In this document: positions 1 through 12,861 of the stretch, in pieces
Layout of the letters: every line of letters begins with the position of its first letter
How positions within the stretch are numbered: position 1 is the stretch's first letter
Notes under the pieces: model-generated
Seen by the model: only the letters and a program-made list of their open reading frames with translations
Told to the model about the DNA's origin: nothing
Database searches by the model: none
Assembly: GCA_039803745.1 (NCBI GenBank)
Contig: JBDRZD010000010.1
Location: forward strand, 23,499 to 36,361
DNA from: a candidate division WOR-3 bacterium
Lineage (GTDB): Bacteria > Hydrothermota > Hydrothermia > Hydrothermales > Hydrothermaceae
Length of the DNA: 12,863 nucleotides
Direction of reading: 5' to 3'
Translations under genes and position numbers: made by a program

Positions 1-2714
1 GGCTTTTTTGTTGAAATAAAAATCGGTATTAAAATTAAAGAAGATAAAGAAGAAATTATCATTGTAATAAAAGTTAAAAATCCAAATCTTTTTATAGGAA
101 GTAAGTCAGCAAAAATTAACACAAGGAAACCAAACCCAACAGAAAAGGCATTTATTAAAACTGCTTTTCCGGTTGTTCTTAAAAGGTTTTCAAAGGCATT
201 TTCATAACTTTCTTTTTTTATTTCTATTTTAATTCTTGAAATAACATGAATTGCATAATCTATTCCTATACCTATTATAATAGGTGCAATCATCACACTT
301 GCAGCATCAAGAGGGAATTTTAAAAATCCTAAAAGTCCAAAATATAAAAGGATTGTAAAACTAATGGGCAGAATTGAAATCAAGCCCCCTATAATTGATT
401 TCCATTCAATTGATACAAAAATAAAAACTAATATTAAAACCATTAAAAGACTCTGTAACTGACTTTTCAAGAGGTTCTCATCAAGTTTTTTGTAAATTTG
501 GGGAACTCCTGCATGATAAATTTTAAAACTAACTATTTCTCCTTTATTCTCAAACTCTTTTTTATAGGGTATGATCCATCTATCTCCTGTAAATTCATAA
601 ATATAATCTTTTATTTTTCCATTCAAATTCACACTATTTACAAAATTTTCTCTTTTTACCTCTTTGAGAATTTCTTTCAATTCAGAAGAAGTTTCTTCAA
701 TTTCTTCTTCATTATTTTTAAAATACTTTTTCAATGTATTTTCTATATCTTTATTTTTTAGTATTTCTTTTATAATTTTTTCTCTCAACTTTTTATCTTC
801 TATCTTAATATAAGCTTCTTCACTCTTAAAATATTCATCCAATTTTTTAAAAGCCAATGCCTCAAAGGATTTTTTATGATTTTCTTCATTTAAAAAAGAA
901 TAGAGGAGTCCATAAATTTTTGAGGAATCTTTTATCTCAAAAACATCGCAAATCATCTTTGTATAGAATTTTGCATATTCTTTAAATACTTTTTCTTTTT
1001 CATAAAAATTTAAATTATTTTCTTCAACTATTAAATATTTACCATCAATTTTTTTTACAATTTTTTCTATTTCTTCGGTAATTTCCCTGTTTAGTTTTGT
1101 CCTTCCGAGTTCTGATACTACTTGAATTAATGCCTTTTTGCCATCTTTTTTTATTATCATATCAAGTTGAGGTTCACCTTCCAATAAAAAGTAAAGATTA
1201 TTTATCTTTTCTTCTGATTCCGGTATTGATCTGAATCCTGTTACAAGTTCATTCATTTCGGCAATTAAATCTGCAATTGATTGGGGATTATGGAGATAGG
1301 GTGATGTTTTAAGTTTATCACCTGTATATTTCATTAATTTTAGAATGAGAGGATTTTTGATATTATCAGCCTCAAAAACTATATAAGAGGAGGCATAGCC
1401 TCCAAATTCTTTTCTCACAAGTTCTGCAGAAAGCCTTACAGGATTTTTTTCAGGAAAATAAGAAATCATATCAACTTCCCGAGTTATTTTCAAAATTCCC
1501 ACAATACTTAAAAAGATAAGAATTATGGATATTTTTATTATTTTGTCTCTTAAAGTAACAATTAATTTAGAAAATAAAATAAGCCAGGAAGTAGGTGGAA
1601 AAGTAAGATCTTTGTTTGTAGAAGGTATTGCTTTTTTAAAAGAAAGAATAACAGGGATAAAAGTTAAAGTTAATATTAAAGCAAAGAGAACTCCTATTGC
1701 TGAGAAAATGCCAAATTTTCTTATTACATCAAGTTGAGTGTATATGAGAGATATAAATCCAAAAAAGGTTGTGATTGCTGCCATAAATATAGGAACCCAT
1801 ATTTCTTTTATACCTTCTTTTATTTTATTTCTTTCATTTCCAAGTTCTCTATATTTATTTAAAAGGTGTATTCCATAAGCAGAACCTACTACCAGAAGAA
1901 TAACAGGTAAAATATTTGAAACTATTGAAAGGGGTATATTTAAAAATCCCATAATACCAAGTGTCCATAAAATTGAAATTAAAACAACCAAAATCGGAAG
2001 TATAACTCCCTCTAAATTTCCGAATCCTAAAAATAAAATAAAAGCAATTATAACTGTTGAAAAAGGAATTAATCTTGTTATTTCCTTTCTTATCATTTCA
2101 TTTACAAATATAACTACAAGGGGAATCCCACTATAATAAATCTCAAAATCCTCTTTAATTTTTTCTGTTATCTCTCTTATTTTTAAAGCAGTTTTTTCTT
2201 TATCTCCCTCTTCAGAGAATCTTATTATAATTGAAGCATATTTGCCATCCTCTGAAACTATTACACCTTTGAATCTATCCTTTGACATTATATATTTTCT
2301 TAAACTGTCAAATTCTTCTTTTGTTTTTGGAATATAATTTGCGGGCAGAAGTTTACCAACTTCTATTCCTTCTTCTATTTTTTTAATATCCATAATATCT
2401 GCAAGACTTGTTACACCAGAAACCCCTTCTATTTTTTTATATTCCTCTGTAAGTTCTTGAATTTTCTTAAATGCTTTTTCATTAAATATATCAGGCTCAC
2501 CCTTTAATATAATCATTCCGATCAAATTCCCTTCAAATTCTTCTCCTATTTTGTTAAAAATTTTTATGTAAGGTTCATCTGGAGGAAGCGCCTTTAAGAT
2601 ATCTCCCTGAACCTTAAGTTTTGATATGCCAAAAATAGAAAAGATAGTTAAAGAGATAATGAGAATTAAATAAAAAATTCTTTTTTTAATTAAAAAATTT
2701 ATGATTTTGACCAT
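1..2714 (-). CDS. MMPL/RND-family transporter (COG1033-type lipid/hydrophobic-substrate permease), 3'-truncated by the window edge, >=904 aa
   Basis: Not in the ORF track because it has no stop inside the window. Hand translation from ATG 2714 (MVKIINFLIKKRIFYLILIISLTIFSIFGISKLKVQGDILKALPPDEP...) stays in one frame to ...MIISSLSSLILIPIFISTKK at position 3. It has the two-fold RND architecture (1 TM, periplasmic domain, 5 TM, twice). TM4 is VVGSAYGIH (GSAYGIH at 1866-1886) and TM10 is GIGIDYAIH (246-272). Paired repeat motifs: MAAITTFFGFISL / INAFSVGFGFLVL and SGIPLV / AGVPQI. Confidence 0.93.
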   Translation of the reverse strand, partial: MVKIINFLIKKRIFYLILIISLTIFSIFGISKLKVQGDILKALPPDEPYIKIFNKIGEEFEGNLIGMIILKGEPDIFNEKAFKKIQELTEEYKKIEGVSGVTSLADIMDIKKIEEGIEVGKLLPANYIPKTKEEFDSLRKYIMSKDRFKGVIVSEDGKYASIIIRFSEEGDKEKTALKIREITEKIKEDFEIYYSGIPLVVIFVNEMIRKEITRLIPFSTVIIAFILFLGFGNLEGVILPILVVLISILWTLGIMGFLNIPLSIVSNILPVILLVVGSAYGIHLLNKYRELGNERNKIKEGIKEIWVPIFMAAITTFFGFISLIYTQLDVIRKFGIFSAIGVLFALILTLTFIPVILSFKKAIPSTNKDLTFPPTSWLILFSKLIVTLRDKIIKISIILIFLSIVGILKITREVDMISYFPEKNPVRLSAELVRKEFGGYASSYIVFEADNIKNPLILKLMKYTGDKLKTSPYLHNPQSIADLIAEMNELVTGFRSIPESEEKINNLYFLLEGEPQLDMIIKKDGKKALIQVVSELGRTKLNREITEEIEKIVKKIDGKYLIVEENNLNFYEKEKVFKEYAKFYTKMICDVFEIKDSSKIYGLLYSFLNEENHKKSFEALAFKKLDEYFKSEEAYIKIEDKKLREKIIKEILKNKDIENTLKKYFKNNEEEIEETSSELKEILKEVKRENFVNSVNLNGKIKDYIYEFTGDRWIIPYKKEFENKGEIVSFKIYHAGVPQIYKKLDENLLKSQLQSLLMVLILVFIFVSIEWKSIIGGLISILPISFTILLYFGLLGFLKFPLDAASVMIAPIIIGIGIDYAIHVISRIKIEIKKESYENAFENLLRTTGKAVLINAFSVGFGFLVLIFADLLPIKRFGFLTFITMIISSLSSLILIPIFISTKK

Positions 2715-2716
2715 TT

Positions 2717-3358
2717 TTATTTAAGTTTTCTTAAAATTTCTTTCAGGTCTTTCTTTATTTCTTTTAAATCTTCCTTTATTTCATCCATTTCTTTTATTTT
2801 ATTCTCAGATACTCCTATTTCTGAAAGTATTTCTCTTATGTTATTTTTTAAATGTTCTTCAAGTTCCTTTTTTGAGGTTATCCCTATTTTTTTGAGTGCT
2901 TCATCAAGGATTGATTTTATTTTTTCTTCAAGTATTTTTTCCCTTTCTCTTGCAGATTCAATCAATAAATTTTTTAATTCTTCACCTTCTTTCTCACTTA
3001 TTTTCTTTTTATCTATAAGATTTCTTACAATTTCCCTTGCCTTCTGTTCTGTTAAAGAGATTGCATTTATTGAGGCAAGAAGAGAATTTTTTATAAATTC
3101 AATAACTGTTGATTTACCCGATTTTATGATTTCTCTTAAAATATAAGGAGCTGAAGAAAATTCTTTTCTATCTTTTACTATTTCCATTAAAATTTGAACA
3201 AGGGTTAAATCCGTTATATCATCACCGGTTTCGTTATCAATTACCTGAAAATCAATTCCCTCTTTTACATAATTTGCAAGTTCTGGAATGGTAATCATTT
3301 TTGATGCTTCTGTATCATATAATTTTCTATTTGAATATTTTTTAATTATTCTCTTCAT
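2717..3358 (-). CDS. PhaR-type (PHB_acc_N) DNA-binding regulator fused to a phasin-like (COG3937-type) helical domain and a C-terminal coiled coil
   Basis: N-terminus RIIKKYSNRKLYDTEASKMIT...VIDNETGDDITDLTLVQILME matches the PhaR N-terminal signature (IKKYxNRRLYDT...D..TG.D.T...L.QII.E). Residues ~86-170 (LLASINAISLTEQKAREIVRNLIDKKKISEKEGEEL...LKKIGITSKKELEE) resemble COG3937 phasin-family proteins. Confidence 0.85.
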   Translation of the reverse strand: MKRIIKKYSNRKLYDTEASKMITIPELANYVKEGIDFQVIDNETGDDITDLTLVQILMEIVKDRKEFSSAPYILREIIKSGKSTVIEFIKNSLLASINAISLTEQKAREIVRNLIDKKKISEKEGEELKNLLIESAREREKILEEKIKSILDEALKKIGITSKKELEEHLKNNIREILSEIGVSENKIKEMDEIKEDLKEIKKDLKEILRKLK

Positions 3359-3359
3359 T

Positions 3360-4646
3360 TTAAAAACTCACTTTTAAGTTCAAATAAAATTGATCGAAGT
3401 TCTTCCAGGAGCCTAAAAGACTTTGCCCTTTACCATGAAGGCTTATAGTTCCTAAATTTATTTCAATATTATCGTAAGGTTTATAGGAAATTTCTGGTAT
3501 CATTGAATAACCATAATTATCTTTAGGAAAATCCCAGTTTGCAATTTCATAGATTCCCGCTATTCCAATTTTTAATTTTTCTTCAAAGAATTTTTTCTCA
3601 ATTTTTGAAACAAAATAATCATGAATAGAATATGGAATGCTTGGGCTATATCTTTCAAAGAAAAAGCCATGATTCCATTGAAAATTGATATAAATCCCAT
3701 TTTTAAAAGTGTAGTCAAATCCAAAAGTAGATTTAACATAGGGTTTACTTAAAATCGTATCCTCATGAGGAATTGGTATTGGCATAATTATTATTACAGT
3801 ATCTCTTGGTATAAAATACCCTATTTCTCCCCATATTCCTACACTTTTAATTTCTCCAGCAAAATCAAATCCTATCATATGAATTTTCGGGAAAAAATAT
3901 AAAGCCTTTATTATTGTATCATGGTAGACTCTTATTCCCTTAAAAATTGGAAAATTATCAAAACCATAAAAATAGGATAACGAAGAATTGAATTTTAAAA
4001 ATTTTCCATAAATCTTTCCTGCAAACATTGGATTTTTAGAAGAGGGATATATAATTGTGTCTTTAATCCCGGGAAATTGAGAGTTTTCCAAAATTGGGAA
4101 TTCTCCTTCGGGCAAAAGTGGAGGTACGAATTTAGGTAAAAAAATTCCTTCTAAAGTAAATTCTTTTGGAAGATATAAATCAATTACAATTGCCTCTGAA
4201 GGTATCTTTTCTCCAAAGTCAAATGGATTTTGCAAATCATAAGGATTTAAAATATCTGTTGGATTCAATCTATCAGCTGTTCCCCAGGCAATTCTTTGTT
4301 TTCCTATTTTAACATCAATATTTTCAAATATAAAACTGTATAGATTTAAATAAAGTTCCCATAGATGAGGTTTGAGTTTATAAGAAGGGTTTGAAAGTTT
4401 TAAAAGGCTTGTTTCGGCATTTTTTGCCCATAATCTAAAAAGCAGGGATGCTCCATACTCGTAATTTTCTTTTTTATCTTTTAAATTGATTTCAAGTTGA
4501 TGAAACATATAAGGGATAGGTTTTATGGTATCTATTTGAAAGATATCTGGCTGGATAAGATAAGAATTATTGATTTTTGCTTCACCTTCAATTTCAATAG
4601 AGTAGAGGAGACTGAAAAAGAATAAAATAATAAGTATTTTTTTCAT
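3360..4646 (-). CDS. Outer-membrane beta-barrel protein, DUF1302-like porin associated with MMPL/LolA-like operons
   Basis: Signal peptide MKKILIILFFFSLLYS. Contains the motif LWELYLNLY...DVKIGKQRIAWGTADRLNPTDILNP typical of these barrels, alternating amphipathic strands, and a C-terminal Phe in a beta-signal-like tail (FYLNLKVSF). SD AAGGAGGT at 4650-4657. Confidence 0.78.
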   Translation of the reverse strand: MKKILIILFFFSLLYSIEIEGEAKINNSYLIQPDIFQIDTIKPIPYMFHQLEINLKDKKENYEYGASLLFRLWAKNAETSLLKLSNPSYKLKPHLWELYLNLYSFIFENIDVKIGKQRIAWGTADRLNPTDILNPYDLQNPFDFGEKIPSEAIVIDLYLPKEFTLEGIFLPKFVPPLLPEGEFPILENSQFPGIKDTIIYPSSKNPMFAGKIYGKFLKFNSSLSYFYGFDNFPIFKGIRVYHDTIIKALYFFPKIHMIGFDFAGEIKSVGIWGEIGYFIPRDTVIIIMPIPIPHEDTILSKPYVKSTFGFDYTFKNGIYINFQWNHGFFFERYSPSIPYSIHDYFVSKIEKKFFEEKLKIGIAGIYEIANWDFPKDNYGYSMIPEISYKPYDNIEINLGTISLHGKGQSLLGSWKNFDQFYLNLKVSF

Positions 4647-4655
4647 ATTACCTCC

Positions 4656-5360
4656 TTATTCTGCTCTTTTAAGATTTCTCTGTGTAAAAATTTCGTCTGA
4701 AAGTCCTGAATCAAGTTCCTCTTTAATTGTTTTCATTATTGTTTTGTGTTTATTTTTTACATTTTCCATTTCAATTTCAGAAATCACCCAATAATTTTTA
4801 ATTTGATTAAATTTTTTATTTCTCATTATTTTTAAAAGATTTTTTCCTTTGTCAAAAAATTTTACCGAGTCTGGAAGAAAAACTTTTTTATTTACAAACA
4901 TTATAAGTTTTGAATATTCTACATCAGAACCCTCTTTGGGAATAAGTTCAAGAACATATTGATTTTCATTTTCTTCCTTTATTTCTGCATTATAGTTTTT
5001 TGTAAATTCACTCTTTGCAAGGTCATTATAAGAAAAATCTGTTCCCATGAATGCCTCATTTTTCACATGGGAAGCAATCCTTCTTATTTTTTTAAAAGCA
5101 GGAAGATAAAGGTAAAGTTCATCATCTGAAAGAACAAGAAAACCTACTCCTTTTACCTCTGCAGGAGATTTAAAAACAAAAAGTTTTTTATACTTTCCTT
5201 TCATCCATATTTTCATCTCTCTTTCCTTTTGATTGCCCTCTGATTCAACAAGAACCATTTTAATTTCGCCAACTCTATCACAAGGTGCATTATAGTTATC
5301 CTCAACTTTTTTTAAAATATCATTCCCTGTTAACATTAAAAAGATTAACACAATGTTCAT
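4656..5360 (-). CDS. Outer-membrane lipoprotein-sorting (LolA-like fold) periplasmic carrier protein
   Basis: Family motifs F.SPAEVKGVGFL, LYLYLPAFKKIRRIAS, FMGTDFSYNDL and the C-terminal GLSDEIFTQRNLKR. Strong SD (AAGGAGGT, 5365-5372), with an in-frame TAA immediately upstream of the ATG. Confidence 0.9.
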   Translation of the reverse strand: MNIVLIFLMLTGNDILKKVEDNYNAPCDRVGEIKMVLVESEGNQKEREMKIWMKGKYKKLFVFKSPAEVKGVGFLVLSDDELYLYLPAFKKIRRIASHVKNEAFMGTDFSYNDLAKSEFTKNYNAEIKEENENQYVLELIPKEGSDVEYSKLIMFVNKKVFLPDSVKFFDKGKNLLKIMRNKKFNQIKNYWVISEIEMENVKNKHKTIMKTIKEELDSGLSDEIFTQRNLKRAE

Positions 5361-5385
5361 TTAAACCTCCTTTCCGGGAGAAAGA

Positions 5386-5411
5386 TTACACATTGAATTT
5401 ACGCATTGCAT
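5386..5411. promoter_or_regulatory. Candidate operator: tandem 13-bp direct repeat containing a PhaR-box-like TGC-N3-GCG
   Basis: TTACACATTGAAT (5386-5398) and TTACGCATTGCAT (5399-5411) are 11/13 identical. The minus strand reads ATGCAATGCGTAA at the predicted +1. Confidence 0.5.
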
Positions 5412-5417
5412 AATAAA

Positions 5418-5446
5418 ATAATACAGGAAAATTTTTAATTTGTCAA
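5418..5446 (-). promoter_or_regulatory. sigma70-type promoter for the LolA-like/OMP/PhaR/MMPL operon
   Basis: Minus strand reads TTGACA (5446-5441), 17-nt spacer AATTAAAAATTTTCCTG, TATTAT (5423-5418). Predicted start is ~5411, about 50 nt upstream of the ATG at 5360. Confidence 0.75.
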
Positions 5447-5465
5447 GGGTATAAAATTTAATTCA

Positions 5466-5497
5466 TTTTGAATTCAAAAATTATTTTCCCTTAAAAT
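5466..5497 (+). promoter_or_regulatory. Possible weaker promoter for the divergent OMP gene, with a 14-bp palindrome over its -35
   Basis: TTGAAT (5468-5473), 18 nt, TAAAAT (5492-5497). Perfect palindrome TTTTGAATTCAAAA at 5466-5479. The AT-rich background lowers specificity. Confidence 0.4.
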
Positions 5498-5524
5498 TTA
5501 AAAGTTAATTAAAAGGAGGTTTAA

Positions 5525-6067
5525 ATGAAAAAAATACTTGTTGTGGTCGTGTGTATAGTAGGACTTCTATCTGCCAAAAATCTGAAAGGGTCATTTGGAA
5601 TGGGTATAGGATGGAGTCCATTAGCATATGCAGGTGCCAGGGATTTTCCAACTCCTGACTTTGTAATTACAAAAATTGGGGTTTCTGACAAAATTATTAT
5701 TGAGCCACTTATTGGTTTTGATTTTACATCATATTCAAATGGAGCATCAGAATCCGGGAGTCTTATACAACTTCAGGGAATTCTGGGTTATATTTTTAGA
5801 GAACATAAAAAAACAAATATTTATTTAAAAGGAGGAATTGGATTTATGGTTGAATCGCCACCAGGAGATACTCCTTATTCCTCTGCCTTTGGTATAGGTA
5901 TACCATTTGGTTTTGGATTAGAGCACTTCTTTTCTGATTATTTTTCAATAAACCTTGATGCTTTTTCAGGATTTTCATTCATAAATATCAATGACCCTGA
6001 TGGAAGTGAAACCTCTTTTTCTCTTGGGAATCATAAAATATTCATTTCTCTGATGTGGTATTATTAA
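5525..6067 (+). CDS. Small outer-membrane beta-barrel protein (probably 8-stranded, OmpA-TM/OMP_b-brl-like)
   Basis: SD AAGGAGGT at 5513-5520. Signal peptide MKKILVVVVCIVGLLSA, Gly/aromatic-rich strands (IYLKGGIGF, FGIGIPFGFGLEHFF, FSINLD) and an aromatic C-terminus (ISLMWYY). Confidence 0.8.
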   Translation: MKKILVVVVCIVGLLSAKNLKGSFGMGIGWSPLAYAGARDFPTPDFVITKIGVSDKIIIEPLIGFDFTSYSNGASESGSLIQLQGILGYIFREHKKTNIYLKGGIGFMVESPPGDTPYSSAFGIGIPFGFGLEHFFSDYFSINLDAFSGFSFININDPDGSETSFSLGNHKIFISLMWYY

Positions 6068-6089
6068 AAAATTTAATAGGAGGGGGAAG

Positions 6090-6503
6090 TTAATCAATTT
6101 TCATATAAAATCTTTTTATATTTTTTCTCCCTTTTCTTTCAAAATCAAATTTATCTATTAATTTTTGAACAATAGAAAGTCCAAGTCCTCTTTCTTTTTT
6201 TAAAATTTCTTTTTCTTCAATATCTGCTTTACCCTTTTTATATATAAAAGGTTTTCCTTGGTCTTCAAAAGTTATAATTATATTTCTTTCATCTTTTTCT
6301 ATTTTAATCTTTATTGGTCCCTTTTTAAATTTATAAGAATGTTCAACAATATTTGAAAGGATCTCGTCAACCACTATTACTACATTAAGGATTTTATCCT
6401 TAGAAATTCTGAAGTTTTCAAGTGATTCATTTAAAATTGTTCTGAGTTCATTAAATTTTGTAAAAGGAGAAAATGTACAGAATTCAAAAATTTTCTTTTT
6501 CAT
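6090..6503 (-). CDS. RsbW/SpoIIAB-like anti-sigma factor Ser/Thr kinase (HATPase_c_2), ~137 aa
   Basis: N-box VVDEILSNIVEHSY, G1 FEDQGKPF, G2 ERGLGLSIVQKLID. Start moved from the track's 6569 to ATG 6503 (MKKKIFEF), which lies 1 nt after the upstream stop and avoids a 65-nt overlap. Confidence 0.88.
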   Translation of the reverse strand: MKKKIFEFCTFSPFTKFNELRTILNESLENFRISKDKILNVVIVVDEILSNIVEHSYKFKKGPIKIKIEKDERNIIITFEDQGKPFIYKKGKADIEEKEILKKERGLGLSIVQKLIDKFDFERKGRKNIKRFYMKID

Positions 6504-6504
6504 T

Positions 6505-7920
6505 TTAGTGCCATATATTTGCAGAAACAAAAATGGTAAGGTGTGGCTCGTAAAAATTAAAACCCTCAATTAAATAAAATTTTTGATTAAAAATATTATT
6601 AATCCTTAAAGTAATAAATAAAACATCAAAAAAGTTTGCTTTTAATTCACCTGAACTCATATTTGTTTTTTCTGTAAGAAATAAAGAATATTCAAATAAT
6701 ATTTTTACATTTTCTCTAACTATTTTTTCACTTCCTACAGTGATTTTTGAATTCATATTTGGATAAAAATCAGAAAGAGTAATGTAGATTATAGAGGGTT
6801 TAAAGAAAATTTTTTCAAAAATTAAAATTTTATTGAATTCTTTAAATAGATTAAATTGAAAGGAATGTAACTTTTCATTTATAAAATTATACATACCATT
6901 TTTAAAAATTGGCATATCTTTTACATATGCATATTCATAACTAAAAGATAAATTTTTGAATTCTTTATCATAAAAATTAAATCCAAAAATATTTCTTCTT
7001 TCCCTTTTAATAAAAGGAGTGGAGTAGAGGGAGAAAATACGAGATTCAATTACAGGATTTGGAAAATAAAGTCCTATAGAATAAAAAGGTAGAAATAACA
7101 TATTTTTAAATGGAATATTTAAAATACTTTCAAAAGAAAAATGATTTGATAAATTTTTATCATTTTCATAATCTAAAGTAAAATAAATTAATTTTTTAAA
7201 ATCTAAAGATGTAAAAAATCCAAACCTATTTTTTTCCTTATTTTTTACAAATTTTAATATTTTATCTTTTAAAATAATATTGATATTTAATAATTTATAA
7301 GTGAAAGTTAAAGTAATTTCTGATTTTAATTGAGAAATAGATTGATGATTTAAAAAGTTTCCAAGATATTGATAATCAATTGAAAATTTCAAATTTTTAA
7401 AGTAATAATTTAAATTATAATCTTCGTATTTTTCTTTTTGTGGATTACCAAAATAGTAAAGGGGAAAATCAAAATCTGAATGATAATAAAGCAAATCAAT
7501 GAAATCTTTCCTATAAAGTTGAACAAAATAGTGATGCTGAACAATTTGAGAATGATAAGCCCGAGATGTATAAATATCATATCCGGTTTTAAAATTAGAG
7601 AATTTTTTAAAAATAGGAGTTTGAAAAGAAAATCCATTAAGAGTACTTTCATATTTATCTCTTTCAGCATATACAGAAGTAATTATTTGTGAATCAGGAT
7701 AAGTAATTTTGTTAGAAACAAAAAGAGAGCGGGTTATATGGGCATTATTAAGTAAAAGTTCAAACCCATTTCTTAAAGGAATTAAAAAATAAATTCCATC
7801 CTTAAAATAATCCCATTTTAAAGAATAATCCAAAGAATAGTAATTATAAAAATCAGGAGCACCAGGTGTAAATTCCTTTTCAAAATAAAAATTTAAAAAA
7901 AATAATATAAGCCAATTCAT
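6505..7920 (-). CDS. Hypothetical outer-membrane beta-barrel with a TonB-dependent-receptor-like C-terminus
   Basis: 471 aa, aromatic-rich with alternating strand patterns. The C-terminal ITLRINNIFNQKFYLIEGF...LTIFVSANIWH resembles the TBDR terminal 'NLFN..Y...G' strands. Short hydrophobic N-terminus. No SD seen. Confidence 0.55.
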   Translation of the reverse strand: MNWLILFFLNFYFEKEFTPGAPDFYNYYSLDYSLKWDYFKDGIYFLIPLRNGFELLLNNAHITRSLFVSNKITYPDSQIITSVYAERDKYESTLNGFSFQTPIFKKFSNFKTGYDIYTSRAYHSQIVQHHYFVQLYRKDFIDLLYYHSDFDFPLYYFGNPQKEKYEDYNLNYYFKNLKFSIDYQYLGNFLNHQSISQLKSEITLTFTYKLLNINIILKDKILKFVKNKEKNRFGFFTSLDFKKLIYFTLDYENDKNLSNHFSFESILNIPFKNMLFLPFYSIGLYFPNPVIESRIFSLYSTPFIKRERRNIFGFNFYDKEFKNLSFSYEYAYVKDMPIFKNGMYNFINEKLHSFQFNLFKEFNKILIFEKIFFKPSIIYITLSDFYPNMNSKITVGSEKIVRENVKILFEYSLFLTEKTNMSSGELKANFFDVLFITLRINNIFNQKFYLIEGFNFYEPHLTIFVSANIWH

Positions 7921-8016: not shown

Positions 8017-8436
8017 CTATTTAGAGAATTTTATATAAAGATTTAGTTTTAATTTCTGTATTTCCTTTGAAGAAGCATTTTCAAAAATAAAATAGTATTT
8101 ATCTCTTGCAGGAGTGATGAAAAGAAATTCTTTATCTTTTGTCAAATAAAAACTCATATAAGGATGAAATTCTTTATTTTCTTTATAATTCTCAAATTCT
8201 TCTTTTTTTAAAAGATACATATTTATATTTTCTCCTTTTATCAAATGAATTTTCCCCTCTACTCTTGCACCTTTTGGAAAATTAAAATAAATTGCTTTAT
8301 ATTTTTGAGGAAAGATTTCAATAAAGTTTCCTGTCATAAATTGAAAGGTTTTAGTTTTTAAATAAAAATAAGAAGCCAAAGTTAAAATACCTGTGACACA
8401 GAAAAGTATAGATAAAAAAATAAGTATTTTTTTCAT
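8017..8436 (-). CDS. Membrane-anchored hypothetical protein with a small beta-sandwich (emp24/GOLD-like) domain
   Basis: One N-terminal TM/signal helix, then ...INMYLLKKEEFENY...FLFITPARDKYYFIFENAS, a pattern seen in prokaryotic GOLD-like proteins. ATGA overlap with the upstream gene. Confidence 0.5.
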   Translation of the reverse strand: MKKILIFLSILFCVTGILTLASYFYLKTKTFQFMTGNFIEIFPQKYKAIYFNFPKGARVEGKIHLIKGENINMYLLKKEEFENYKENKEFHPYMSFYLTKDKEFLFITPARDKYYFIFENASSKEIQKLKLNLYIKFSK

Positions 8437-8945
8437 TTGTTGCTATTTAAAGAAAAAAATGAAGTGGCAAGCACTATGAATCCTATCCAGGCAATGAATG
8501 CTCCAACTAAAATTATAATCAATATTCCTCCTATAAGCATTAAAATGCCTGAAATTTTAAATAAATTTTCATTCGTTTTCTCTGAAACTATTTCTGTGCC
8601 TCTAAAAAACAAATAACCTGCTATTCCTGCAATGATCCATGTGATTGAAATACTAATGATTATAAAAGGGAAAGTAAAAGGAATTAAAAAAAATGTATAA
8701 ATTAATTTTTTGAAAAAGTATAAAGAAAAAATAGTATATACACCAAAAGTTGCAAAAATATCAAGTATAAGAGCAGCAAGAATATAACTCCATATTCTAT
8801 AATCTTTTAACTCACGAGATAATTTTTTAAAAGCAATTGAAAGAAGAACATATCCTGCAATAAAAAAGAGAAAACCAAAATTTGGTAAAGGAGATAAAGC
8901 ACAAAATATTGCTCCTATTCCTCCTATTAATTTTATTTCCTTCAT
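8433..8945 (-). CDS. DUF996 (COG2245) integral membrane protein
   Basis: Characteristic start KLIGGIGAIF...IAGYVLLSIAFKKLS and C-terminal TNENLFKISGILMLIGGILIIILVG...FFSL. About 5-6 TM helices. ATGA overlaps on both sides. Confidence 0.82.
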   Translation of the reverse strand: MKEIKLIGGIGAIFCALSPLPNFGFLFFIAGYVLLSIAFKKLSRELKDYRIWSYILAALILDIFATFGVYTIFSLYFFKKLIYTFFLIPFTFPFIIISISITWIIAGIAGYLFFRGTEIVSEKTNENLFKISGILMLIGGILIIILVGAFIAWIGFIVLATSFFSLNSNK

Positions 8946-11305
8946 TCTTTCTTTTTAAATTTACCAATAAAGATTAGGGTGATTAAAGAAATTATAAAAA
9001 TCAAATAACCTGTAAAACTTAATAAAATACCAATTTTGTGTCCTTTAGAAGTGAACTTTAATTTTACATTATGATTCCCTTCTGGTAATATAAATCCTGT
9101 TAGAGTGTGATTCACAGGAAAACTTTTAACAATTTTCCCATCTACTCTTATTCTCCATTTTGGATGCCAGTTTATTGATAATACACATACTGCTGGATGG
9201 GAAAGAGAATACTCAAATTCAATTCTATCTGCCTCATATTTTTTAATCTTATATGAAAATTCAATAGAATCTTTCTGTGGTGGAAAATCTATATTTTTTA
9301 TCTTATCTTCCTCAATATAAATATAAGATAACTCTTTATCAAGGAAAAGATTTTTAAGAATTTCATCTTGTGGCAAAATCTTCCATTTTCCATAGAAAAA
9401 TATCCTTCCTTTATCTCTTGGATTTTTGTAAATTACATAATCTTTTCCTGAATAAACTTTCTCATAGTCTTTATAAAATTCATGCCAGAAAATTAGTTGT
9501 CTTCTAATATTTTCAGGATATCTTTCAATATCAGGAGGTAAGGGAATATCAATTATATATTTAACATTTAAAAGATTTAAAAGATGCTTATAATTTATAA
9601 GGTTTATTGGAACAAACATAACTGATTTTTCTGCACCTATAAAATCCTGATATCTTTGCAGGGGATTTGCTACATATCCACCAATACTTTCAATTCCATA
9701 AAGCATCAGAAGCCCTTCATCTGCTCTCTTATATCTTAACGGGAAAACTCTATACATATCATTATCATTTTTTAAAAATTTGATAACCTCATCTTCTCCA
9801 TAATAAATCTCAGGAGGCTCTATACTTTTAATAAAATCTTTTTCAATTCTCCATACATCAAAAATAAAAAAAGGTAAAAATAAAAGGAGAAGAGTTTCAC
9901 TAAGTTTTTTAAAATTTATGAGGTAAATAATTGTTAAAAAAATAAGATAAAGGAAAAACAAAATCCATACATCTTTTAACAAAAATTCATAATTTGTATA
10001 AACTGCATTCTCTTTATCACCTTTTGCAAATTCTGAAAACAAATTTATAAAACTTTCTTTGAAAACCGAGAAAATTAATGCAAGGAGGAATAAAAGACCT
10101 GCCGAAATGATTATAAATATTTTTAAATCCTTTTCTTTAAATTCTTTAAATTTACTGATGAAAAATGCAGAAGAAATTGCGAGTATAAAGTTAATTTGAT
10201 AAAAAATTAAAGATGGTGCCCTGAATTTCTTTACCCCAGGTAAAATTGTATAAAATATATGAAAAACTGGTGTATATCCACCAAGAGCATAAAAAACTAC
10301 AACTATAAACCATACAATCAGGAATTTAATCTTTTTATCTTTAAAGAAATATATAAAAGACGAAAGCCCAAGAACAAATGGAACTATACCCATATATTCA
10401 AGGTGTAATCTAAAAGGGGACTCTCCCCAGTAATTTTCTAAATAGCCTGAAAAATGGGGATATAAGAGGTTTAAAATTTCAATAGGAGGTAATGACCAGG
10501 AAGTGCTATATTCATAACCTCTTTCTGCTCCTCTTGCTGCATGTTTTAAATTTTCAAGAACAGGAAATATGTAAAAGGAATACATCATAAAAGAAACAAG
10601 AACCCCTGAAATTGCATAAATAGAAAATTTAATTATCTCTTTTAAATTTGCTTTTTTTACTCCTATTAAGTAAAAATAAAAATAAAAAACTGAAAGAGCA
10701 AAGGCAAAATATGTTAGTTGAAAATGTCCCTGTAAGAATGCAAGTCCTCCAAACCCTCCTGCAATTAAAAAGAAAACTATATTGTTTTTATTGGTGCCTC
10801 GGGTTAAGAAAAAAAGCATAAAGGGAAATATACAGGCACTCACACTTCTTCCAAGATGTCCTCCATAAACTGTTGTAACAAGTGAGCCTGAAAACATATA
10901 GAATAAGCCTGCAAAGAATGAAGATAAAGGGTTTAATTTCCATTCTCTTGAGAAAAGATAGGTTCCAAGTCCACCAAGCGAAAGGTATATTAAATATCCT
11001 AAAACCTGGACTTTATGGACAGGGAAAATGAGTCTTAAAATTGTTAAAGGAGTTAGAATATCCATATAAAAAGAAGCAACAGTTGGAAGACCGCATCTTG
11101 CATAGGGATCCCATAAAGGAATTCTTCCATAATTTTTTATGAATTCACTTATCCATTTTTTATAAGTATAAGTTCCAAGGAGCCAGTCAGTTCCATATAT
11201 AAGCACATTTTCAATCAGGATTTTGGCAAAGAGAATAAAAGAAAGAAAAAAATATATTAAAAATACTGCCCACCATTTCTCAAATATTTTCTCCAATTTT
11301 TTCAT
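8942..11305 (-). CDS. YfhO-family polytopic membrane protein (GT-C-fold glycosyltransferase-like)
   Basis: First-loop motif GTDW...GRIPLWDPYARCGLP, many TM helices, LPGVKKFRAPS, and a YfhO-type C-terminal domain VLSINWHPKWRIRVDGK...VNHTLTGFILPEGNHNVKLKF followed by a final TM. Confidence 0.85.
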   Translation of the reverse strand: MKKLEKIFEKWWAVFLIYFFLSFILFAKILIENVLIYGTDWLLGTYTYKKWISEFIKNYGRIPLWDPYARCGLPTVASFYMDILTPLTILRLIFPVHKVQVLGYLIYLSLGGLGTYLFSREWKLNPLSSFFAGLFYMFSGSLVTTVYGGHLGRSVSACIFPFMLFFLTRGTNKNNIVFFLIAGGFGGLAFLQGHFQLTYFAFALSVFYFYFYLIGVKKANLKEIIKFSIYAISGVLVSFMMYSFYIFPVLENLKHAARGAERGYEYSTSWSLPPIEILNLLYPHFSGYLENYWGESPFRLHLEYMGIVPFVLGLSSFIYFFKDKKIKFLIVWFIVVVFYALGGYTPVFHIFYTILPGVKKFRAPSLIFYQINFILAISSAFFISKFKEFKEKDLKIFIIISAGLLFLLALIFSVFKESFINLFSEFAKGDKENAVYTNYEFLLKDVWILFFLYLIFLTIIYLINFKKLSETLLLLFLPFFIFDVWRIEKDFIKSIEPPEIYYGEDEVIKFLKNDNDMYRVFPLRYKRADEGLLMLYGIESIGGYVANPLQRYQDFIGAEKSVMFVPINLINYKHLLNLLNVKYIIDIPLPPDIERYPENIRRQLIFWHEFYKDYEKVYSGKDYVIYKNPRDKGRIFFYGKWKILPQDEILKNLFLDKELSYIYIEEDKIKNIDFPPQKDSIEFSYKIKKYEADRIEFEYSLSHPAVCVLSINWHPKWRIRVDGKIVKSFPVNHTLTGFILPEGNHNVKLKFTSKGHKIGILLSFTGYLIFIISLITLIFIGKFKKKE

Positions 11306-12861
11306 ATATAACCCAATCCTTTTAAATGTTTTTTTATACTTTCAGCATCCTTCTCATCCATCTCATACTCCTCTACCCCTTTATAAGGCAAATTTATAAA
11401 CTCATATTTTATCTTTTCTTCAAATAAATTTTCAGGGATCTTTCCATCCACATCATCCAGAATTTTTTCACCAAGAAGATAAAGAAGAGTTGGAAAAATA
11501 TCATAAATTTTGATTTTTTCTTCGTATATTCCTCTTTTAATTCCATCTGCCTTTATAAAAAATATTCCATCTAAATCTGCATGGTGATGTCCCTTTAAAT
11601 CAGGTCTATCAATTCTTTTATCAAATAATTTATTACTTATATTCACATTTATTCTGAAATCTTCTTCTGTTGTATAAACAACTTCTGGCATTAAATCAAA
11701 ATAAGGACCATTAAAAATTTCATATTTTGTATAAACAATCTTAAATACTTTTCTTCCTTTATCATCCCTTAAATTTAAAAAATCCTCTTTAATTTTTTCT
11801 GCAAATTTCCTTTTTTCTTCTTCATTTTTAAAAAATTTATCATTTAAATAAACTCCCGCATACCAGTTTGCAAAACACATAGAATTTTCCCAGTCAACCC
11901 TTTTAATTATTTCTTCTCTTGCAACCTTATATTTAAATTTTTCAGGTATGAGATTTCTTAAAAATGGCATCATTCTTATAATCTTTTCACCGATATTATA
12001 TAAAAATATAGATGTTTTTCCACTTATTGTTTTTGCTCTTTTTAAATATCCCTTTTTTTCAAGAAAACTGTTTATATAAAAATATGTTCTTGGAACTTTA
12101 TGAAATCCGTGGTCTGACATTATTATAAAAATATCTGGATTTAAAAGACTATATAATTTTTCAGTATAATAATCAGCAACCTTGTAAATTTCAAGAATCT
12201 CTTCCTCATTTTCATAAAAAAAATGCATAAAATCGTCAAGTTCTTTAAAATTTATTATAAAGAAATCCGGATTAAATTCATTTATAAGTTTTAACGCACA
12301 TTCCCCGTGTTCCTTTAATATTTCTATTAAATCTCTTTTCATCCTTTTTAAGTTAACTTTTGAATCGGGATGCCCGTATCTTCCTATATCTAAATCAGGA
12401 GAAATTTTATAATTTTTTAATCTTTCATTAAGATAAGGTGGATAGGCAAAATCCTTTGCTTCTTTTGGTGTTAAAAAATCAGTTATTAAAAATCCATTTA
12501 CCTTTTTTGGGGGATATGTAACAGGAACATGCATAACCCCTACTTTATACCCAAGATAAGATAAATATTCCCATATTGTCCATGTCTTTATGTCAGTTGA
12601 ATTTATAAAAAAAGATTTTGAAAAACTTTCAGGGTCAAACCCTTTTGATTTTATTAAAAATGGCCCTATTTTTGCAGGATTTTTACCTGTATAAAAGCAA
12701 GGCCATGCAATCATTGTATATGCAGGAACAACCGATTCAAGAATTCCAAAAGCGCCTTCTTTATAAATCTTTGAGAAAAAATGGAGTTTTTCTTCTTTTA
12801 AAAATTTAAGAATCAATCTAAATGGAGCACCATCAAAACCTATTATAAGGGATTTTTTCAT
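11302..12861 (-). CDS. Alkaline-phosphatase-superfamily protein (COG3379, nucleotide pyrophosphatase/phosphodiesterase-like)
   Basis: IIGFDGA (metal Asp), ESVVPAYTMIAW..FYTGKNP (Thr nucleophile), PVTYPP, DDFMH, IIMSDHGF, GHH and the C-terminal HLKGLGYI. No signal peptide. Confidence 0.9.
   Translation of the reverse strand: MKKSLIIGFDGAPFRLILKFLKEEKLHFFSKIYKEGAFGILESVVPAYTMIAWPCFYTGKNPAKIGPFLIKSKGFDPESFSKSFFINSTDIKTWTIWEYLSYLGYKVGVMHVPVTYPPKKVNGFLITDFLTPKEAKDFAYPPYLNERLKNYKISPDLDIGRYGHPDSKVNLKRMKRDLIEILKEHGECALKLINEFNPDFFIINFKELDDFMHFFYENEEEILEIYKVADYYTEKLYSLLNPDIFIIMSDHGFHKVPRTYFYINSFLEKKGYLKRAKTISGKTSIFLYNIGEKIIRMMPFLRNLIPEKFKYKVAREEIIKRVDWENSMCFANWYAGVYLNDKFFKNEEEKRKFAEKIKEDFLNLRDDKGRKVFKIVYTKYEIFNGPYFDLMPEVVYTTEEDFRINVNISNKLFDKRIDRPDLKGHHHADLDGIFFIKADGIKRGIYEEKIKIYDIFPTLLYLLGEKILDDVDGKIPENLFEEKIKYEFINLPYKGVEEYEMDEKDAESIKKHLKGLGYI

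Follow-up and report, generated by a model that had tools for sequence, protein, structure and literature searches.

The subject of this analysis is a four-gene operon on the minus strand of a 12,863-nucleotide stretch of DNA (the window; C10:23499-36361, where C10 is contig JBDRZD010000010.1) from a heat-loving candidate division WOR-3 bacterium. The operon encodes a LolA-like periplasmic carrier, an outer-membrane β-barrel and an MMPL-type inner-membrane transporter, together with a regulator in which a PhaR-type DNA-binding domain is joined to a phasin-like half. On balance, we lean towards an interpretation in which the operon is under the control of this local autorepressor, which is probably released by hydrophobic cargo and so controls the export of envelope lipids or other hydrophobes. 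The transporter trio is of an already described kind, and it is the regulator that is new.

The host assembly is 1.67 Mb in size and 93.5% complete. The window proteins were compared with Pfam and NCBIfam profiles, 11 open reading frames (ORFs) entering the domain scan, and the survey of the phylum, labelled Caldifarciminota in the tree, covered 272 genomes. What was established in silico is which genes are present, that the regulator is a domain fusion, that a promoter and an operator-type site precede the operon, that this site stands alone in the genome, that the pairing recurs and that polyhydroxyalkanoate (PHA) synthase matches are lacking. In the order of transcription, the genes of the operon are as follows.

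4656-5360, minus strand: LolA-like periplasmic carrier, 234 amino acids (PF17131)
3360-4646, minus strand: outer-membrane β-barrel, DUF1302-like, with a signal peptide, 428 amino acids (PF06980 and an AlphaFold2 model)
2717-3358, minus strand: PhaR-N/phasin-like fusion regulator, 213 amino acids (PF07879 and hhalign)
3-2714, minus strand: MMPL/HAE3-type resistance-nodulation-division (RND) inner-membrane transporter, 904 amino acids seen (PF03176); open at the window edge

The intergenic gaps within the operon are 9, 1 and 2 nt. A reading made earlier from the sequence alone had described four co-oriented genes behind one promoter, and this arrangement was borne out by the ORFs and by the best sigma-70 match, at 5446..5418.

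The regulator is composed of two parts.

3179-3349, minus strand: DNA-binding domain, residues 4-60 (PF07879)
2738-3079, minus strand: phasin-like helical half, residues 94-207 (PF05597, weak, and hhalign)

The N-terminal part matched PHB_acc_N (PF07879) with an E-value of 6.5e-24 over residues 4-60, and the residues I5, Y8, N10, R11, Y14, D15 and G34 of this domain were found to be invariant across 38 homologs. The score of the protein against the PhaR equivalog TIGR01848 was 74.3 bits, which is under the cut-off of 109.45. PHB_acc (PF05233), which we take to be the central and C-terminal domain of canonical PhaR, was not listed by Pfam at E≤10 for either the whole regulator or its C-terminal part. 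When nine of the C-terminal halves were compared with five stand-alone PF05597 proteins of the phylum, hhalign returned a probability of 97.8% (E 1e-12, 77 columns), and precomputed Pfam annotation placed PF07879 and PF05597 together in 7 of 41 regulator homologs. These two results indicate that the description of the protein as a PhaR-N/phasin fusion, already proposed in the sequence-only reading, is right; as judged by profile comparison, the C-terminal half is homologous to the PF05597 phasins. The regulator holds the only PF05597-like stretch in the host genome and, at 83-87% identity to its relatives in the related loci L002-L004, is together with the carrier the best conserved product of the operon. 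In a structural model, the N-terminal domain was predicted with a pLDDT of 86-90 and the long helices with lower confidence (overall pTM 0.34). A fold search with this model gave no match in the PDB at E≤0.001, and a profile search of PDB sequences with the regulator returned coiled-coil noise only.

The DNA upstream of the carrier gene holds a promoter, a putative operator and a ribosome-binding site.

-35 box 5446-5441 and -10 box 5423-5418, minus strand: sigma-70-type promoter, TTGACA, 17-nt spacer, TATTAT, 11 of 12 positions matching
5411-5399 and 5398-5386, minus strand: putative PhaR-type operator of two tandem 13-bp units, 6 nt past the -10 box and over the expected transcription start
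5366-5370, minus strand: ribosome-binding site GGAGG, 5 nt ahead of the ATG at 5360, read from the sequence

The promoter, which lies 58 nt 5' of the ATG, scores highest among the 33 sigma-70-like matches of window positions 1-6200; the total of such matches shows no excess over the mean of 34.5 in shuffled sequence. The palindromic PhaR core YGCRNYGCR was matched once in the 12.9-kb window, at 5402-5410, against 0.07 matches expected, with 15 of 200 shuffles giving one or more. This core is the consensus for PhaR of S. meliloti, where it is backed by electrophoretic mobility shift assays with mutated sites (PMC12542648). When a matrix was derived solely from distant loci (five of them, with 19 units), the window site ranked first genome-wide, scoring 25.2 bits against 15.6 for the next site, and ten other top sites in the genome that were examined all lay within ORFs. 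Between the -10 box and the ribosome-binding site, operator units were present in all nine PhaR-linked cassettes, which come from six families of the phylum (1-5 units per locus, 2-5 when counted by eye, 23 in total), these being five with the carrier gene first (the window, L002, L003, L004 and L036) and four with the PhaR gene first (L043, L045, L050 and L051). In a five-locus alignment the conserved blocks were the -35 box, the -10 box and the first operator unit. Among 33 further loci that were scanned, only L037 and L039 reached 16 bits, and both sites adjoin PhaR-like genes, while no operator of 16 bits or more was found in seven MMPL-LolA-barrel loci that have no adjacent PhaR-like gene. 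The position of a YGCRNYGCR-type operator at the promoter of the regulator's own operon implies autoregulation, and the sequence evidence taken as a whole predicts a dedicated, autoregulated local repressor.

In two of the related loci the leader is longer, with approximately 100 nt of additional sequence between the operator and the ribosome-binding site (L004:125-240 and L003:5860-5993). This additional stretch, absent from the window, folds into a strong, G+C-rich hairpin with a run of U behind it and is terminator-like (z -3.15 and -2.43). A scan of the window, L003 and L004 matched no Rfam family. The stretch may act as an attenuator or represent a small repeat that was inserted.

The pairing of regulator and transporter genes is not unique to the host genome. 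The same four-gene order was found in L002-L004 and in L036, and a different order, PhaR-MMPL-LolA-barrel, in L043, L045, L050 and L051; the two orders are rotations of each other, and in both the PhaR gene stands immediately 5' of the MMPL gene. The regulator was matched in 59 of the 272 genomes. Twenty of the flanks were fetched, and the regulator was directly beside transporter genes in five of them (L036, L043, L045, L050 and L051) and 3-6 kb away in two more (L040 and L038). Direct adjacency, including cases in the window's own order of bacteria, was seen in at least 11 genomes of six families among the matches listed. The neighbourhood survey thus showed that the pairing recurs in other families of the phylum with a conserved operator. 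In-frame stops, one or two per copy, interrupt several of the phylum's PhaR-like matches (G249, G225, G268, G026, G270 and others), and the copy in G046 is split over two frames; some of these copies may be decaying, or the stops may be assembly errors.

The carrier matched LolA_like (PF17131) at 1.5e-55 and 188.1 bits, against a Pfam cut-off of 30, and gave a weak match to DUF1329 (3.4e-5). The nearest solved chains were 9tp6 (LolA3 of P. gingivalis, 8.9e-27), 3bk5, 4z48 and 3buu, and its identity to the L002-L004 orthologs was 82-84%. The barrel matched PF06980 at 3.9e-5, with 23.3 bits against a cut-off of 23.2, over profile positions 146-238 of 541 only, and no solved DUF1302 member was found by sequence search with it. 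Its AlphaFold2 model (pLDDT 80.9, pTM 0.78) gave 318 PDB matches at E≤0.001, the top ones being the 18-strand barrels OccAB4, MOMP and AlgE at a TM-score of ~0.5, and by this model the fold is that of a large outer-membrane barrel of the 18-strand type. Barrel identity among L002-L004 was 56-64%. The pump matched MMPL (PF03176) at 3.3e-47 and 161.5 bits against a cut-off of 20.5; its score against HAE3 (TIGR00921) was 275 bits against a cut-off of 351.9, the gene being truncated at the window end. It also matched the sterol-sensing domain in Pfam, its nearest solved chain was MmpL4 (7.6e-12), and its identity among L002-L004 was 58-72%.

A difference was noted at the N termini of the carriers. 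Those of the PhaR-linked cassettes (the window, L036, L043, L045, L050 and L051) have a short hydrophobic start without Lys or Arg, and those of PhaR-free cassettes begin with an MKK-type signal peptide of the ordinary kind. In the window, the codon immediately 5' of the carrier's ATG is a stop.

The extent of the operon was judged from the related loci. The MMPL gene is truncated at the end of the window, where a run of 166 N adjoins it in the contig. In L002 the orthologous gene encodes 913 amino acids and is followed by a convergent gene, and the operon is therefore taken to consist of four genes. To the left of the 166-N gap (C10:12001-23498, L075) lie genes for a FadL/TodX-family barrel, a hexapeptide transferase and a 3-hydroxyacyl-CoA dehydrogenase, together with two amidohydrolases and an adenylate cyclase with an AAA_16 domain. 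No homolog of the genes on that side of the gap was found in any of the 10 related loci searched, and an extension of the operon across the gap to the FadL-like, hexapeptide-transferase and 3-hydroxyacyl-CoA dehydrogenase genes was rejected on this ground and because of the convergent gene in L002.

The genes around related cassettes and around PhaR-like genes share the theme of envelope lipid or hydrophobe handling. The PhaR-free cassettes of L055, L057, L059 and L060 stand among genes for two patatin lipases, PlsC-type acyltransferases, acyl carrier protein (ACP) and β-ketoacyl-ACP synthase III (KAS III), and the same clusters include FakA, DegV, PlsY, a glycosyltransferase, radical SAM enzymes, an ABC1 kinase and stand-alone PF05597 phasins. 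The set L055-L062 had been selected for contigs on which a LolA-like gene occurs together with a stretch matching the C-terminal half of the regulator, and this selection bias makes it unusable for counting how often LolA-like and phasin-like genes are associated. In the survey itself, PF05597 was matched in 21 of the 272 genomes at 28 places, and for at least nine of these places the matches listed put a LolA-like gene on the same contig, at a distance of 1.7-10.3 kb (for the LolA-like matches, 150 of 318 positions). In three of the selected loci the stand-alone phasin gene lies beside a gene for an ABC1/UbiB-type kinase (L055:13048-15046, L059:7311-9326 and L060:11945-15456). In the host genome, KAS III, ACP, PlsY-like genes and LpxC are present, and canonical LolA (PF03548) had no match; that the cassette might stand in for the Lol pathway was among the ideas considered.

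PhaR-like paralogs elsewhere in the phylum have other partners. L049 and L054 combine acyltransferase and ACP neighbours with a divergent TolC-HlyD-AcrB operon, L048 and L052 have major facilitator superfamily transporters as neighbours, and in L040 a CrtC-type lipocalin gene is followed by MMPL-LolA-barrel genes. In several families a radical SAM gene of ~460-500 amino acids, in some cases with a SPASM domain, is located directly 3' of the PhaR-like paralog (~490 amino acids in L038, L039, L040 and L053), as in the following loci.

L038:9679-11184, radical SAM gene after a PhaR-like paralog
L039:9685-11190, radical SAM gene after a PhaR-like paralog
L040:7432-8895, radical SAM gene after a PhaR-like paralog
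L053:8558-9943, radical SAM gene after a PhaR-like paralog
L047:9629-11104, radical SAM gene after a PhaR-like paralog

These loci often include glycosyltransferase, methyltransferase, CrtC-lipocalin or lipid A acyltransferase genes, and the arrangement looks like a lipid-modifying cluster under PhaR-type control. At PhaR-like loci in metagenomes, a phasin neighbour or fusion was present in 18 of 80 and a patatin lipase downstream in 7 of 80. In these seven (L082, L085, L111, L131, L136, L139 and L140, on soil and sediment contigs) the patatin-like lipase gene is shortly downstream of the PhaR-like gene, often with a phasin gene shortly upstream.

In the model that we favour for the function of the operon, the pump, carrier and barrel would form a route from the inner membrane through the periplasm to the outer membrane. 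Its cargo would be hydrophobic, the likeliest candidate being a lipid or glycolipid of the cell's own envelope. The PhaR-type domain of the regulator would bind the tandem 13-bp operator over the transcription start and in this state repress all four genes, that of the regulator among them. Judging by analogy from PhaR and PhaF, its phasin-like half may bind a hydrophobic surface or molecule, be it accumulating cargo, lipid or membrane; the repressor thus engaged would leave the DNA, the exporter would be switched on and the cargo would be moved from the inner to the outer membrane. For PhaR, repression is described as being lifted by titration onto a hydrophobic surface, the granule (PMC3079617, PMC3570403, PMC12542648), and for PhaF a granule-binding sequence is reported that also binds oleic acid and phenyl-sepharose non-specifically (PMC5658603). 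Within this model we infer operator binding, repression, the releasing signal, the cargo and the direction of transport.

A number of observations weigh against this interpretation. The cassette does not generally come with this regulator: LolA-like genes were found in 192 of the 272 genomes, and a PhaR-like gene adjoins the cassette in at least 11 among the matches listed. Conversely, PhaR-like genes had other neighbours in 13 of the 20 fetched flanks, no transporter genes stood beside the PhaR-like gene at 12 further places (L063-L074), and no MMPL, LolA or barrel genes were found at any of the 80 metagenome loci, 36 of which extend over at least 6 kb. In Pfam, the C-terminal half matches PF05597 over profile positions 20-123 of 126 with an E-value of 0.011, and its 16.2 bits fall short of the cut-off, 28.8. 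The helices of this half could be no more than an oligomerizing coiled coil. Clear amphipathicity was seen only in the last of them (residues 185-212), where none of 500 shuffles scored as high, and not in the three others, which gave shuffle fractions of 0.07-0.45. The second operator unit of the window is degenerate, at 8.7 bits against 19.7 for the first. The pump of the same subfamily in AmeABCD serves xenobiotic tolerance, and an endogenous lipid is therefore a putative cargo. Contigs of the metatranscriptome library X1 that are 95-99% alike covered 15 of 30 bins and reached into each of the four genes, the PhaR/barrel and barrel/LolA junctions being bridged by two contigs. These contigs are consistent with expression, and they are weak evidence, as the library may hold DNA and a single transcript is not demonstrable from contigs.

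In one alternative, the substrates would be hydrophobic toxicants from outside the cell, the operon would encode a pump for their efflux or for tolerance of them, as AmeABCD does for monoterpenes, and the PhaR/phasin protein would be a hydrophobe-responsive repressor in the role that TetR has with many efflux pumps. AmeABCD is made up of an HAE3 pump, a barrel of the DUF1302 type and a protein of the LolA superfamily, and monoterpenes are less well tolerated once it is deleted (PMC6394551). In the phylum studied here, PhaR-like paralogs are divergent from TolC-HlyD-AcrB operons (L046, L049 and L054) or beside AcrB (L039), and in L044, L047 and L060 a TetR gene has a PhaR-like gene or the cassette as its neighbour. 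The related cassettes are, however, embedded in genes of lipid synthesis and remodelling and not in catabolic islands, and the COG4447/BNR partner found in Ame-type cassettes is absent from the window; we consider a toxicant pump rather unlikely. The direction of transport could also be reversed, with the barrel and carrier scavenging exogenous lipids or fatty acids for membrane synthesis. Related clusters do contain patatin lipases, the FakA/DegV fatty-acid kinase, PlsY and PlsC, which make up a pathway for incorporation of exogenous fatty acids, and a FadL-family gene is present past the 166-N gap in the host contig. This neighbour was nevertheless not kept in the 10 relatives searched, the RND/MMPL pumps that have been characterized (HpnN, AmeD and MmpL) are exporters, and the host probably makes its own fatty acids, because KAS III and ACP are present. 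An inward route is thus judged to be improbable.

Two further alternatives concern what, if anything, the regulator senses. It might be blind to any signal, acting as a constant-level autoregulator or as a DNA-tethering or scaffold protein similar to PhaF or PhaM, with a helical half that only oligomerizes. The helices are rich in Lys and Glu, the last is heptad-like, shuffled sequences equal three of the four in amphipathicity, the C-terminal model is of low confidence (overall pTM 0.34) and leucine zippers are described as common in phasins (PMC5658603). On the other side stand the homology, at 97.8% probability, to stand-alone phasins, which sit in lipid clusters without a DNA-binding part, and the conservation of the C-terminal half within a protein that is 83-87% identical in relatives, and we hold a signal-blind fusion to be very improbable. 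The sequence-only reading had instead suggested that expression may be tied to intracellular storage bodies. In this case PHA granules or neutral-lipid droplets would titrate the regulator. Granule titration is the canonical PhaR mechanism (PMC3079617, PMC3570403, PMC12542648), and the stand-alone phasins of relatives, found beside ABC1 kinases and patatin lipases, belong to a set that would fit lipid droplets. The window itself, as that reading had stated, holds no PHA synthase, thiolase or reductase domain in its 11 scanned ORFs. Against storage, PhaC_N was matched in none of the 272 genomes, and class III PhaC (TIGR01836) in none of the 272, the control for the latter matching only weakly, in Caulobacter. 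No patatin, ABC1 or stand-alone phasin was found in the host genome by tblastn, where the regulator is the only PF05597-like stretch; no wax ester synthase/diacylglycerol acyltransferase was found there either, in a search whose control was silent and whose result is uninformative. Storage of PHA or wax was rejected as a candidate on the PhaC_N and class III PhaC counts. As PHA synthase was not found in 272 genomes, the storage-granule link is unsupported, and titration by storage bodies is in our judgement the least probable of the explanations considered. Of these readings, we continue to prefer a local autorepressor controlling lipid or hydrophobe export.

Relative to known systems, the claim that the system is undescribed holds for the regulator pairing and not for the transporter trio. 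A full-text literature search found no paper in which PhaR, phasin and MMPL occur together, and among the titles and abstracts that make up the retrieved literature on PF07879/PF05597/COG3937 and PF17131/COG1033, none describes such a pairing. The trio falls in with AmeABCD, a cofitness cluster and ApeL/ApeM/ApeN, that is, with Ame-type and APE-type cassettes. AmeABCD of Castellaniella defragrans has an HAE3/COG1033 pump, a LolA-superfamily protein, a DUF1302-type barrel and a hydrophobic substrate (PMC6394551), and the DUF1302/DUF1329/COG4447/COG1033 cofitness cluster (Price et al., 10.1101/072470) represents the same kind of trio. The window differs from both in that it lacks COG4447/BNR (no BNR or PSII_BNR domain was found in its 11 ORFs), its PF17131 carrier has 234 amino acids where DUF1329 has ~450, and its barrel has 428 amino acids and not 605; a PhaR-type regulator is not described for the Ame and cofitness clusters. 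ApeL/ApeM/ApeN share a LolA-like chaperone and an RND transporter, for which delivery of specialized lipids to the outer membrane has been proposed, and a setting of acyltransferase, ACP and KAS genes like that of the related clusters in this phylum (PMC8253772). They differ in having a LolB-like DUF3261 outer-membrane partner and no barrel, in lacking an embedded regulator and in having a function that is only predicted. LolA3 of Porphyromonas gingivalis (9TP6) is the nearest solved relative of the carrier and has a hydrophobic groove; it differs in that weak binding to LolB-PG is reported, and a separate role is proposed by the authors (PMC13103446).

For the regulator, the closest comparisons are PhaR/AniA/PhbF and PhaF. 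As predicted from sequence, it shares with PhaR/AniA/PhbF an N-terminal PHB_acc_N domain and a YGCRNYGCR-type operator at the promoter of its own operon, and by analogy it may share the combination of a DNA-binding half with a half for hydrophobic surfaces. Unlike PhaR, it scores under the equivalog cut-off, it has a PF05597-like half instead of PHB_acc and no PHA synthase was found in its genome or phylum. Where PhaR acts on genes for phasins or depolymerases, the target here is a transporter operon, with an operator whose units repeat in tandem every 13 bp. In Pseudomonas putida, PhaF likewise combines a PF05597-type domain and a DNA-binding part in one protein with a regulatory role (PMC5658603). 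The domain order is, however, reversed. PhaF acts on PHA granules and contacts DNA through AAKP repeats, which are histone-like and non-specific, whereas the regulator of the window is predicted to carry a sequence-specific PhaR-type domain.

The remainder of the window is occupied by further genes, several of them also related to the envelope.

5525-6067, plus strand: gene of 180 amino acids, divergent from the operon, for an outer-membrane β-barrel (weak OMP_b-brl and DUF2715 matches)
6090-7920, minus strand: RsbW/SpoIIAB-like anti-sigma kinase (HATPase_c_2, 5.1e-19), overlapping an ORF of 471 amino acids without a Pfam family
8017-12861, minus strand: envelope genes, namely a GOLD-like lipoprotein of 139 amino acids, a DUF996 membrane protein, a YfhO-like protein of 787 amino acids and a type I phosphodiesterase/AlkP-family enzyme of 519 amino acids

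The divergent barrel gene is kept in L003 at 61% identity, and the anti-sigma kinase and the 471-amino-acid ORF are syntenic there at 74% and 57% identity.

PhaR is known from textbooks as the switch through which bioplastic granules act on gene expression. In the window, a PhaR-type domain and its type of operator are found inside a trans-envelope transporter operon, in a phylum without a detected PHA synthase. If the phasin-like half does sense the load of lipid or other hydrophobes, PhaR-family regulators and phasin domains would have a wider role, and the protein, its 26-bp site and candidate ligands would together provide an in-vitro handle on the cargo of HAE3/LolA-like/DUF1302 systems. 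Such systems are poorly understood and very common, a LolA-like gene being present in 192 of the 272 genomes, and since the host is uncultured, a self-contained regulator-operator pair is among the few ways to probe them. A broader idea, possible but offered tentatively, is that the PhaR-N/phasin module is a general sensor of hydrophobic load, which drives trans-envelope lipid export in this PHA-free phylum and of which the control of PHA in Proteobacteria is one specialization. In this view the phasin-like half would register lipid or hydrophobe building up at the surface of a membrane or droplet, and the PhaR domain would convert this into a transcriptional response. Were that to be true, the PhaR-like/phasin/patatin loci of environmental samples would represent a widespread and so far undescribed class of lipid-homeostasis switches.

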